From Candidatus Saccharimonadota bacterium (lineage in GTDB: Bacteria > Patescibacteriota > Saccharimonadia > Saccharimonadales > JAGQNJ01), in assembly GCA_020428405.1 (NCBI GenBank), contig JAGQMZ010000002.1:33-64032 (forward strand): DNA of 64,000 nucleotides. The letters run 5' to 3'. Below the pieces are notes generated by a model, which searched no databases, was not told where the DNA came from, and saw only the letters and a list, made by a program, of their open reading frames with translations. This document shows, in pieces, positions 4,922 to 40,525 of this stretch; positions within the stretch are counted from its first letter, which is position 1, and the number at the start of each line of letters is the position of its first letter. The translations under genes and the position numbers were made by a program.

Positions 4922-5143
4922 AGTTTTATGAATCCTTTACCTTAAATTTATATCGACCTGAGTGTTAATGTTCTTCTACCAAAAAAGCCTTTGGTTGGCC
5001 AAAGACTTCTTAATATACGATTTTGCTTTTATCTTTTATAAATAACGGCTTCTCGTACCTCGGTAGCATTCTTAAGTGGTTACACCGCTACTGTCTTTGG
5101 TAAAATGTACCTGAATTATATCAATTCTTTAGGGTAATATCAA
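4922..5143 (-). promoter_or_regulatory. rplJ promoter and L10-leader-like structured 5' UTR with attenuator hairpin
   Basis: TTGATA (5138-5143), N17, TATAAT (5115-5120) on the minus strand. The ~190-nt leader contains GUCUUUGG-ccaa-CCAAAGGC plus UUUUUU (4981-5007). This hairpin's G-U pair works only in minus sense. SD is AAGGTAAAGGA. Confidence 0.5.
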
Positions 5144-12479: not shown

Positions 12480-12494
12480 GTTTATACCTACTCT

Positions 12495-12578
12495 TTACGT
12501 AATTTAATCTGTTATTTAGTGTCATTTACGTAATCGTTTACGTAAACGATTACGTAACTATCTAAAAAAGTGCGTAAC
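12495..12578. promoter_or_regulatory. Array of TTACGTAA palindromes (candidate operator) just upstream of rplK
   Basis: Exact TTACGTAA at 12495, 12526, 12538 and 12550, plus a half-site TGCGTAAC at 12571. The three central boxes are 12 bp apart and lie within a perfect 30-bp palindrome (12527-12556). The box at 12495 is 16 nt from the GTG start. Confidence 0.5.
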
Positions 12579-12616
12579 TCGTTTATTCTACTACAAATCA
12601 CCCCTGTTGTCTACCC

Positions 12617-12691
12617 ATGAGACAAACCTACGGTTTTTCTCATCGCACCAGGCAAAAATGCGATTTTTGCTTGAGCTGCTCTTTTCCCTAA
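12617..12691. repeat. Copy B of the structured intergenic repeat (nusG-rplK spacer)
   Basis: See copy A. The first 29 nt are identical. One substitution pair keeps a stem base pair (G:C in A, A:U in B). Confidence 0.6.
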
Positions 12692-12951
12692 TTTCGGTTA
12701 TGATTTTTTCTTCTGTAATTGGTATAGAACTTCACTACATCTAGTGCTATCTCCTACACGCGTCTGGATAGGGAATACTCCCTGATCGGGGTTTTTGATA
12801 AATGTGTCACTAAACCCACAAGCTTCTACATTACAACCAAATGTTACTTGACTGACAGCTGAACTAGCAAGTGCTATTTCTAGCTTAACCTCTTAACTAA
12901 ATAAAACGAGGTATCTCCACGGATTAACCAAAGGCTCTTGTTGGGCCACAA

Positions 12952-39032: not shown

Positions 39033-39181
39033 TCTTCTCCTTGCAAACGCTTTTACATAAAAAGTCTTGGTTACGTGTGGTTTTCGCCCAAGCGAACCTT
39101 CATCTATAACCAAGTGTCTTATTAAAAGATACCAATACAGAGTAGCAGAAAACCCTCACCTCTGTCAATACGTTGTTTATA

Positions 39182-39448
39182 TTACACGCTTATATAGATT
39201 CCAATTGGGAGCCAAAAGCCAACTAGCATTGATACTAAAAGAACAGCGTATTCTATTTTTCTATCAATTTTAAAGTGGTCATGACTTACTAAAACTAAGC
39301 CAATTAATAAGCCAACTGGTATAGGAAGTTGCCAAGACTGGCCATCTGTAGCTTTAATCCATAAAGAACCAAGTACCATGAAAAGTAATATTTTTAAGAA
39401 GTATGCACTGTCTGATTGTTTAGCTTGTTTCTGTTTTTTCTTTGCCAC
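39182..39448 (-). CDS. Hypothetical small membrane protein (88 aa, 2-3 TM) inside the S10 operon
   Basis: K/Q-rich N-terminus followed by hydrophobic helices. GTG start without a clear SD. Confidence 0.45.
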   Translation of the reverse strand: MAKKKQKQAKQSDSAYFLKILLFMVLGSLWIKATDGQSWQLPIPVGLLIGLVLVSHDHFKIDRKIEYAVLLVSMLVGFWLPIGIYISV

Positions 39449-39471
39449 TAGCAGCCATTATATCACTTATG

Positions 39472-39657
39472 CTATTTTTGCCAGTCTTTAATAGTAATAA
39501 TACCGTTCTCTTCGGTTACCACGACTTTTTGACGCTCTTGCCAGCGAAGCTTTCTAATAATACCTACCGGTATTGTTACAGAGTAGCTGCTGGTCCCAAC
39601 TTTAGTGATTTTTCTTACAGGGTTACTACTTGATTTTTCTTGAGCCGTATCTGTATT
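39472..39657 (-). CDS. AbrB/SpoVT-like DNA-binding domain ORF lacking an ATG/GTG/TTG start (not in the ORF track)
   Basis: My translation is NTDTAQEKSSSNPVRKITKVGTSSYSVTIPVGIIRKLRWQERQKVVVTEENGIITIKDWQK*. The VG.S..VTIP..I...L.W..G..V motif is typical of SpoVT/AbrB. Same frame as the 145-aa ORF, separated by TAG-TGT-TAA. A possible ATC start lies at 39609. Confidence 0.4.
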   Translation of the reverse strand, partial: NTDTAQEKSSSNPVRKITKVGTSSYSVTIPVGIIRKLRWQERQKVVVTEENGIITIKDWQK

Positions 39658-39663
39658 TTAACA

Positions 39664-40101
39664 CTATTTACGTAAACGTTTACGTAATCGATTACGTAAA
39701 TTACTATCGTCATCCGGAACCCTCGTTAAGCTACTTTTTAAAAACTTATCGTGATCAAAAATTGAGTTTTCTGGATCAAGCTTACCTATCTCCTGTACCT
39801 TTGAGTAAATTGCACAGTTACCAATTGCTTTCGCGACTTCTGTTCCATATTCTATCATGCGCCAGTCATAGCGCTTACCGTCAAAGCTAAACATACCTGT
39901 AAGAAAATCAACCTCCACACTGTCCGGAAAAATTCGTGACCGGACGCTAACCGGAGCATCACTGAGCTGTTCGCCCGGCAACCCGATAATTGATGGTGTT
40001 GGTAAATCACCTATGACAAGACCTTCTGGGGGATTATGTATGCCGATAATAGAATAATTGCCTGCAACCGCCAATCCAATTAAGTGTTCTGGCTTTGACA
40101 T
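39664..40101 (-). CDS. Hypothetical protein (145 aa) between rpsJ and rplC
   Basis: ORF starts 6 nt after the rpsJ stop. The basic C-terminal tail LRNRLRKRLRK is encoded by the TTACGTAA array, so the true 3' end is uncertain. Confidence 0.4.
   Translation of the reverse strand: MSKPEHLIGLAVAGNYSIIGIHNPPEGLVIGDLPTPSIIGLPGEQLSDAPVSVRSRIFPDSVEVDFLTGMFSFDGKRYDWRMIEYGTEVAKAIGNCAIYSKVQEIGKLDPENSIFDHDKFLKSSLTRVPDDDSNLRNRLRKRLRK
39668..39699. promoter_or_regulatory. Second TTACGTAA array (3 boxes, 12-bp phasing)
   Basis: TTACGTAA at 39668, 39680 and 39692 with palindromic 4-nt spacers ACGT/TCGA. The downstream flank (TTACGTAAAT..TAAA..ACAGAT) resembles the rplK array flank. Lies immediately upstream (minus sense) of the AbrB-like ORF. 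Confidence 0.5.
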
Positions 40102-40107
40102 GGTAGT

Positions 40108-40443
40108 TTACATCTTAATTTCGGCGTCGCAGCCGGCTGGCAAAGACAGGCTCATTAATGAGTCAATTGTCTTTGGCGTAGGCTCTAGAACGTCAATGAT
40201 ACGTTTGTGAATACGCATTTCAAACTGTTCACGGCCTTTTTTATACACGTGTGGACTTTTTACTACTGTGTACTTTGTTTTTTCTGTAGGCAAAGGAATC
40301 GGCCCGGCAATAGTTGCGCCGGTACGAATAGCGGTGTCTACAATTTGTTTTGCTGATTGATCGATCACCTTGTGATCATATGCTTTTAGTCTGATACGGA
40401 CGCGTTGTTTGCCCGTTTCATTCTTTGCGGATGCTGCACTCAT
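40108..40443 (-). CDS. rpsJ: 30S ribosomal protein S10 (uS10)
   Basis: [41 protein letters not shown]. The ATG at 40443 has SD AAAGGAA. The track start is 40467. Confidence 0.95.
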
Positions 40444-40525
40444 AAAATTCCTTTCTTTTTTGAGCACTCTAACATGTACAACCGTTAGAATTTATTATTA
40501 CTATAATATTTTACAACATTAAGTT

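Follow-up and report, generated by a model that had tools for sequence, protein, structure and literature searches.

A stand-alone AbrB/SpoVT-type DNA-binding domain is predicted on the minus strand between the ribosomal protein genes rpsJ and rplC in a contig of a Candidatus Saccharimonadota bacterium (Saccharibacteria, candidate phyla radiation, CPR), in an open reading frame (ORF) that has no canonical start codon. The 64-kb stretch of this contig that was analyzed is called the window below, and positions are counted within it. An original prediction, made from the letters of the window, had offered three explanations for this frame: an independent gene with a rare start codon, a formerly fused gene split by stop codons, or a decaying pseudogene. 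Our analysis points to the last of these in a specific form, in which the ATG of the orthologous genes is now ACG by a single T>C change and the body of the gene is still intact.

The minus-strand gene order is fusA, tuf, rpsJ, a 145-amino-acid (aa) ORF (ORF145), the AbrB-like frame, an 88-aa membrane protein ORF (ORF88), rplC, rplD, and rplW. ORF145 ends with the TAG at 39666-39664, which is followed by TGT and by a TAA at 39660-39658. Downstream of this TAA, the frame is open for 61 codons, from 39657 to the TAG at 39477-39475, and its translation is NTDTAQEKSSSNPVRKITKVGTSSYSVTIPVGIIRKLRWQERQKVVVTEENGIITIKDWQK. As the original prediction had read from the sequence, the frame is in phase with ORF145 across TAG-TGT-TAA and contains no ATG, GTG, or TTG ahead of the domain; the earliest canonical start in frame is the GTG at 39522-39520 (codon V43), well within it. 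An ATC also lies in frame with the domain, at 39609-39607. Right ahead of the frame, three TTACGTAA boxes code for the tail of ORF145, forming its last 11 codons (39668-39699, read ...NLRNRLRKRLRK and stop). The features of the locus are as follows.

40108-40467, minus strand: rpsJ, from reading of the sequence
39664-40101, minus strand: ORF145 (145 aa), separate from the AbrB gene and located between rpsJ and the operator
39668-39699, no strand: predicted operator array, in which three palindromic TTACGTAA boxes are spaced by 12 bp (39668-75, 39680-87, 39692-99)
39655-39663, minus strand: extended -10-like element TG-T-TAAAAT (TG 39663-62, hexamer 39660-55), from a geometry common to the loci L011, L002, L006, L012, and L003
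39646-39648, minus strand: ACG in the ATG column of the family, 10 codons ahead of V11-R12-K13 and 6 nucleotides (nt) past the -10 hexamer
39475-39648, minus strand: predicted AbrB/SpoVT-fold coding body, 57 codons and the TAG stop 39477-39475, from sequence, family, and predicted fold
39182-39448, minus strand: ORF88, an 88-aa predicted membrane protein and syntenic partner of the AbrB gene in relatives (52-53% identity to the ORFs of L011 and L012)

A CPR-wide family of small AbrB/SpoVT-fold proteins

The assignment of the frame (39657-39475) to the SpoVT/AbrB type was borne out by homologues, a family hidden Markov model (HMM), and the predicted fold. The Pfam model PF04014 (MazE_antitoxin) matches the window copy with E=2.6e-5 and 24.5 bits, just below the cut-off of 24.7, and the NCBIfam models TIGR01439 and TIGR02609 match it weakly. 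Seven homologues with 52-67% identity (E down to 1e-12) are stand-alone proteins of 58-61 aa. P0001-P0004 carry precomputed PF04014 matches, and P0003 is annotated as 'AbrB/MazE/SpoVT family DNA-binding domain-containing protein'. Scanning GTDB genomes with a degenerate pattern located 80 loci across CPR groups, including Saccharibacteria, Peribacteria, Nomura-, Moran-, Jorgensen-, and Staskawiczbacteria and other groups, and a profile search of 1.84 billion representative proteins, clustered at 50% identity, gave 516 clusters with E<=1e-3 and 189 with E<=1e-10. The proteins in these clusters are nearly all 55-65 aa long and match the profile from residue 1 onwards, and the AbrB domain runs to their last residues, with the conserved end ...DW(K/Q)K. 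The consensus of this unnamed CPR family of 58 aa reads 'M.RRK..NIRKITKVG..S.SVTIP......L.W.ERQKVVV......I.I.DWKK'.

When the family HMM was built without the window copy, the copy scored 86.0 bits, compared with 94.7 +/- 6.4 for the members. It retains 16 of the 18 columns conserved at 80% or more, the two lost being the Met and a turn Gly; the family residues R12, K13, T15, G18, S21, V24, T25, I26, P27, E38, R39, Q40, K41, V42, D55, and W56 are all present. AlphaFold2 models the window copy as β-β-α-β-β (strands 14-17 and 21-24, helix 28-34, strands 42-47 and 50-55) with a confidence score (pLDDT) of 76.5. Searching the PDB with Foldseek, ranks 1-30 are all MazE, SpoVT, AbrB-N, VapB, Sso7c4-like, or C56/C68 structures, with probabilities up to 1.0 and template-modeling (TM) scores of 0.5-0.7. 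Judged by its sequence and modeled fold, the frame is an orthologue of a CPR-wide stand-alone AbrB/SpoVT-fold protein of ~58 aa that consists of the DNA-binding domain alone.

Several genomes carry two or three paralogues (L018, L036, and L029/L038/L044). Two family genes of one Saccharibacteria genome lie on a single contig, CAZXJN010000001.1. The first (L011) is intact and follows rpsJ, and the second (L070) has a different N-terminus (...SASYMVTIPKEYIKKLGWKERQKVVV...) and lies downstream of rplM-rpsI; the family gene of L076 is near rplM-rpsI too.

The start-codon column and the syntenic orthologues

All 79 other distinct family copies start with ATG, and in 62 of the 79 this Met stands exactly 10 codons before the motif [IVT]R[KN]; the distance from Met to RK is never negative. 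In the window, the same column holds ACG (39648-39646). The suggestion of an independent gene starting at the ATC at 39609, with the product M-TKVGTSSYSV..., has in its favor that ATC is a known rare bacterial start and that it is in frame. However, a product begun there would lack R12 and K13, both of them invariant among the aligned members, no Shine-Dalgarno sequence precedes it, and none of the relatives, with their prevailing distance of 10 codons, starts at or points to this position. We therefore consider an ATC start highly improbable.

Inspection of the orthologous loci found an intact ATG in L011, L012, and L003, and no fusion among them. In L011, from Saccharibacteria, the order is tuf, rpsJ, a terminator, three boxes, TAAAAT-acggat-ATG, and the AbrB gene (58 aa), followed by a 298-aa ORF, a 112-aa membrane protein 53% identical to ORF88, rplC, rplD, and rplW. 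L012 and L003 show the same relative order with the AbrB gene intact between rpsJ and rplC, and the 110-aa ORF of L012, like the 112-aa ORF of L011, falls within the 52-53% identity to ORF88. The window reads TTACGTAA-ATAGTGT-TAAAAT-ACAGAT-ACG-GCT where the aligned DNA of L011 reads TTACGTAA-TTCTTGC-TAAAAT-ACGGAT-ATG-GCG, and the frame resembles its relatives from codon 2 on (M-A in P0005-P0007 and in L011, to which identity is 58%). The parsimonious reading of this alignment is that ATG would have become ACG at 39648-39646 through one T>C transition in the lineage of the window.

A further locus, L042 (CAZOER010000033.1, about 1195-1366), has ATA in the start column and reads IARPRTASEPVRK..., with three TACGTA boxes ahead. 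In its protein, the V-T-I-P motif carries I where T is usually conserved. L042 may be another decaying copy or a gene with a genuine non-ATG start.

Palindromic boxes as the probable operator of the family

The adjacent palindromes had been proposed as the natural operator of the regulator, and the wider family agrees with this: arrays lie ahead of family genes, and the type of box follows the subtype of the protein. Within the window, TTACGTAA occurs 8 times against 1.5 expected (none of 100 shuffles reaches 8), and phased pairs of the form TACGTA-N6-TACGTA are found at 39669-39698 and 12527-12556 only, against 0.13 expected. Ahead of the homologues, boxes read ACCTTACGTAAGGT (twice) in L001, ATTACGTAAT (twice) in L002, AATACGTATT (twice) in L003, and GAATTAATTC in L004 and L006, and L009 has a triple array nearly identical to that of the window. 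An 8-mer repeated at 10-14-bp spacing is present in 45 of 78 family upstream regions, compared with 1.9% of random 80-mers. In addition, the box sequence co-varies with the N-terminal strand and loop of the protein. At least two TACGTA boxes precede 24 of the 57 copies of the RK.T type and none of the 18 of the R..Q type (p=3.6e-4), and CTAG or CATATG boxes precede 15 of the 18 R..Q-type copies and none of the 57 RK.T-type copies (p=3.6e-13). It is thus well supported by these comparisons that the TTACGTAA boxes are the predicted operator of this family.

The boxes of the window span roughly -19 to -50, with 7 nt left between their end and the -10 hexamer downstream. Since they overlap the promoter, bound protein would occlude RNA polymerase. 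A family gene placed directly behind two or three palindromic boxes with ~12-bp phasing that overlap its promoter has the layout that would be expected for self-repression, and by analogy with MazE, VapB, and AbrB we infer that the family protein represses its own gene.

A predicted leaderless transcript

The TAA that looks like a second stop after ORF145 is part of the -10 hexamer TAAAAT, and the spacer ACAGAT (39654-49) separates the hexamer from the ACG. Across the family, TANNNT with a gap of exactly 6 nt to the ATG is found in 17 of the 79 copies, compared with about 3 at any other offset. L002, L006, L011, and L012 are among these copies, and the gap is 7 nt in L003. No purine run of the Shine-Dalgarno kind precedes the ACG or the ATC at 39609. 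In the Saccharibacteria clade of the window, where the hexamer precedes the ATG by 6-7 nt, this geometry predicts a leaderless mRNA with AUG at its start, and the window transcript is predicted to start at A39648 with 5'-ACG.

The promoter also bears on the proposal of a formerly fused ORF145-AbrB gene, split by stops or still joined by read-through of TAG and TAA. The two frames are in phase with only TAG-TGT-TAA between them, which would suit a fusion. However, the operator and the -10 hexamer lie between the frames, the TAA belonging to the hexamer, and the family proteins of 55-65 aa stand alone. ORF145 is a lineage-specific orphan for which no homologue was found anywhere in the homology search, although its codon-position content of guanine and cytosine (GC) is like that of real genes. 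It is missing from L011, L003, and L012 and is unrelated to the ORFs ahead of the boxes in L003 and L012. Read-through of tandem stops is itself very unlikely, and we give a fusion next to no weight. Stop-codon reassignment or a read-through fusion was rejected, as table 11 gives normal translations for the ribosomal genes of the window and the family proteins stand alone.

Alternatively, the gene might start at the GTG at 39664-39662, which overlaps the ORF145 stop (TAGTG), and be interrupted by a 1-nt insertion in the A5 run at 39638-39634. Without the extra A, the frame would read MLKYRYGSRK-SSSNPVRKITKVG..., resembling the longer, Lys-rich N-terminus of P0001 (MKKYKKTKQTSDPVRK), and overlaps of stop and start are common in coupled genes. 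However, this GTG lies upstream of the -10 hexamer and would be absent from the transcript of the gene. The existing frame is already family-like from codon 2, the ACG column fits the orthologues without an indel, both by codon count and by distance from the -10 hexamer, and the intact start of L011 aligns with the ACG rather than with the GTG. Moreover, no assembly examined has an indel in the A5 run. An interrupted GTG start is therefore improbable, and this candidate was dropped, given that the family alignment and L011 fit the ACG column as it stands.

The ACG is genuine and the region is a gene-turnover hotspot

Over 39100-40500, the window shows 0 mismatches and 0 gaps against the Logan contigs of four runs, which come from different studies (2015, 2019, 2021, and 2025), and the same strain is seen in runs of lower coverage. 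Independent Logan, ENA, and NCBI contigs agree across the region, ACG included, and positions 39655-39666 are likewise identical in independent contigs. A sequencing or assembly error was rejected, given these identical contigs from independent studies. Among contigs fetched through their identical S10 protein, L212, L214, L215, and L217 are arranged as in the window; L212 and L214 are identical to it, and L215 differs by one single-nucleotide polymorphism at position -1 (ACAGAG-ACG) and retains the ACG. No near-identical protein with an intact start was present among 5.8 billion proteins.

At the rpsJ-rplC junction, contigs with 100% identical S10 differ in their genes, with five sets or more, one of which is that of the window (ORF145, the AbrB frame, and ORF88). 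In the others, the cargo is a 118-aa ORF, a NUDIX gene, an 83-aa ORF, and a 161- or 238-aa ORF in L209, L213, and L218, a 65-aa and a 62-aa ORF in L210, and a 285-aa ORF in L216, and L211 has a 466-nt spacer only. None of these six contigs has an AbrB frame or boxes between rpsJ and rplC. The rpsJ-rplC junction is a gene-turnover hotspot, and the regulator is dispensable in this clade.

A probable young start-codon-loss pseudogene

Loss of the start codon is the reading that we favor, with a probability of roughly 0.68: the frame would be a young pseudogene or, at best, a gene that is strongly under-translated. Its ground is homology, fold, synteny, the position of the ACG, the authenticity of the sequence, the association of boxes with the family, and the co-variation of box and protein subtype; leaderless transcription, autorepression, and loss of translation are inferred. 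Leaderless mRNAs are much stricter than leadered ones in selecting AUG (PMC8459731, PMC9031893). In Caulobacter reporters, every near-cognate codon cut expression drastically; even GUG, UUG, CUG, and AUN do so on leaderless mRNAs, and ACG does not figure among the starts known to function there (PMC8459731). Since leaderless translation strongly needs AUG at the 5' terminus and a Shine-Dalgarno sequence is missing, production of the protein has probably ceased or fallen to traces. After loss of the start, the body of the gene would have stayed undamaged. Its score of 86.0 bits and its 16 conserved columns show no detectable decay, so that the change is either recent or the gene is still constrained. 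The remaining operator and promoter may merely feed transcripts into ORF88 and rplC.

Several points weigh against this reading. The leaderless state, the start of transcription, and the absence of translation are themselves predictions. The ORF is fully intact with all invariant residues kept, which would be equally expected if it were expressed from ACG, and negative autoregulation could partly offset weak translation. The ATA in the start column of L042 suggests that near-cognate starts may be tolerated in this family. Finally, a second array, ahead of rplK, is conserved both here and among relatives whose L11 is 95-99% identical, which suggests that a binding protein is still present, either this one or an unseen paralogue.

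These points lead to the possibility that the gene is still functional, with low-level initiation at the near-cognate ACG at 39648 buffered by negative autoregulation, and with the protein occupying its own operator and the rplK array. Apart from the intact body and the case of L042, such a gene would explain the perfect conservation of the operator arrays, here and at rplK in close relatives, and the open frame kept in two haplotypes, the window and L215. However, little can be read about selection from the intact frame of two haplotypes that differ so slightly, and the gene is entirely missing in very close relatives. The uniform ATG of the other copies, the missing Shine-Dalgarno sequence, and the drastic loss of leaderless expression even with GUG, UUG, CUG, and AUN (PMC8459731) also speak against it. 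We regard continued function from ACG as unlikely, though plausible enough to be taken seriously beside loss of the start codon.

The array ahead of rplK

The original prediction had held that an array near rplK would tie the regulator to ribosomal protein expression. This is correct in that the array is a true copy of the promoter and operator and recurs in very close relatives, but it is absent at 93% L11 identity and the family as a whole shows no such enrichment. The copy is located as follows.

12495-12557, minus strand: second promoter/operator copy ahead of rplK (GTG 12479), from sequence alignment and relatives

This module consists of three boxes (12526-12557), TAAATA (12518-13), ACAGAT (12512-07), and a fourth box (12495-12502). 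Among relatives, the array is present in L222 (L11 99% identical) and, with two boxes, in L221 (95%), and is missing in L219 and L220 (93%). A -10-like hexamer ~25 nt upstream of the array is conserved (TAGAAT in the window, TACAAT in L221 and L219), and the array may lie within the rplK leader. Judged by this comparison, the link of the array to L11/L1 expression is real but specific to this lineage. A ribosomal gene is found within 3 kb of about 10% of the family loci, a share near a rough estimate for small genomes. A family-wide tie to ribosomal protein operons was accordingly set aside for lack of a clear excess; only the Saccharibacteria rpsJ-rplC synteny is real. No second family member was found within the window. 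If the regulator of the window is dead, the rplK operator would now be either unoccupied or supplied by an unseen paralogue.

The 470-nt spacer between nusG and rplK (12480-12951) contains no coding-strand ORF of 30 aa or more, gives no Rfam match even at E<=1, and has a weak folding z-score of -1.96. Its conservation is limited to the last ~135 nt before rplK. In relatives, the nusG-rplK interval holds two small ORFs in L219 (78 aa and about 97 aa) and a membrane-like ORF in L221; a tblastn search of the spacer matched no remnant of these small ORFs. Upstream of rplJ, positions 4972-5118 match the Rfam L10_leader with 67 bits, an ordinary autoregulatory leader that the window has in addition to the unusual box array at rplK.

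Arrays in other genomes

At least 120 triple TTACGTAA arrays were found in metagenomes, and arrays of 3-6 boxes with 12-bp phasing are common in low-GC contigs. Of the 80 array loci inspected (L089-L168, JGI metagenome contigs), only about 15 adjoin a family gene. Other flanking genes, recognized from their N-terminal sequences, look like what we take to be smpB, ruvC, ispH, fba, and ddl and genes for RNase J and an M16 peptidase, among others. Arrays ahead of many unrelated genes suggest a regulon, although some of the higher-GC matches may be unrelated. On a few higher-GC contigs, arrays lie beside LacI-type regulators; these too may be unrelated.

A bolder joint reading is that the 58-aa AbrB-fold family is a major undescribed sequence-specific transcription factor of the CPR with a readable code, here still made from a leaderless 5'-ACG. 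The recognition code would pair the RK.T type with TACGTA, the long-loop RKLTRMGGGKS type with TGAATTAATTCA, and the R..Q type with CCTAGG, ACTAGT, or CATATG, and the regulon would comprise phased operators ahead of housekeeping genes including rplK-rplA. If true, nature would here provide an example of leaderless initiation at a non-AUG codon, tuned by autorepression. We consider the combination a long shot.

The metagenomes that contain the window strain hold a third array locus, seen as loose ends at window positions 39666 and 39701 in runs X1, X2, X6, and X12. This locus has the triple-box array of 36 nt with 2 mismatches, between a terminator-like hairpin (AAATCCGCCGGTTAAAGCGGATTT) and GGGTTTAGCTATTTTTCCTCTG. 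In X1, X6, and X12 the locus is about as deep as the window contig, and in X2 four times deeper. Scanning JGI metagenomes for the exact pattern gave no match to this locus, and it is not among the fetched loci.

Comparison with known AbrB-fold proteins

The type II antitoxins MazE, VapB, and PrlF (PF04014; PDB 1mvf, 1ub4, 5l6l, and 3zvk) share with the CPR family the swapped-hairpin AbrB fold, the small size, and palindromic repeats that overlap the promoter ahead of their own gene, implying autorepression. Unlike them, the CPR family has no C-terminal toxin-binding tail, as the domain fills the whole 58 aa, and no conserved neighboring toxin gene. When the downstream ORFs of 58 family loci are grouped, no cluster dominates (5 members at most), and the window neighbors ORF145 and ORF88 match no toxin family. 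A role as toxin-antitoxin component was rejected, as there is no conserved partner gene among the 58 loci.

The N-terminal domains of Bacillus subtilis AbrB, Abh, and SpoVT (PDB 1yfb, 2k1n, and 2w1t) resemble the window protein with TM scores of 0.66-0.71, probabilities of 0.98-1.0, and 25-30% identity. In addition, the CPR arrays ahead of many unrelated genes suggest a spread of sites of the global-regulator type, as for AbrB. The window protein differs from AbrB and SpoVT in being a single domain of 57-58 aa without their C-terminal multimerization or GAF domains. Unlike AbrB, the CPR family has sharply defined palindromes in phased arrays. To our knowledge, AbrB has no clear consensus site, and DNA recognition by the AbrB fold has long been without a clear code.

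The best sequence-level PDB matches of the window protein (E about 0.3, 35% identity) are the Sso7c4, C68, and C56 group. These 'histone-like' AbrB-family proteins of Sulfolobus (PDB 2l66, 5itj, and 5itm) and the pSSVx/pSSVi proteins C68 and C56 (3o27 and 7xi6) are likewise stand-alone single AbrB domains, of 48-60 aa. Unlike the CPR family, they are archaeal or viral, Sso7c4 has been described as a chromatin-type binder (PMC3159460), and neither phased specific operators nor a leaderless autoregulated layout is known for the group.

At the level of the gene, the locus resembles start-codon-loss pseudogenes, with a single transition in the initiation codon and an otherwise intact ORF. It also resembles leaderless mRNAs with a critical AUG (PMC8459731, PMC9031893) in that the start is predicted to be 5'-terminal; the leaderless status in the window is predicted from promoter geometry only. 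A fitting label would be start-codon-loss pseudogene, or ACG-start candidate, of an AbrB/MazE/SpoVT-family protein, and neither fusion nor ATC-start gene. For annotation, the locus shows how a gene caller misses a conserved regulator through one changed base in the start codon.

CPR bacteria have very few recognizable regulators. Nothing relevant came from the literature searched, either for AbrB of Saccharibacteria and Patescibacteria or for TTACGTAA operators. The picture across the CPR is of a stand-alone AbrB-fold protein with phased palindromes in its own promoter and the same arrays ahead of many unrelated genes, and natural pairs of protein and operator would make the recognition code of the AbrB fold directly testable. 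The locus itself is ordinary; we find it moderately interesting for the view that it would open onto an undescribed CPR regulator-operator system.

Observations at ORF88

A promoter scan found a promoter-like site, CTGGCA-16-TGaTATAAT, at 39484-39457, whose -10 hexamer ends 8 nt before the GTG of ORF88. From this sequence, ORF88 may have a promoter of its own, giving a very short leader, where the AbrB frame has its 3' end. In one low-depth contig (run X14), one base of the A-run at 39432, in the Lys-rich N-terminal part of ORF88, is missing, through either an assembly error in the homopolymer or a frameshift variant of minor frequency.

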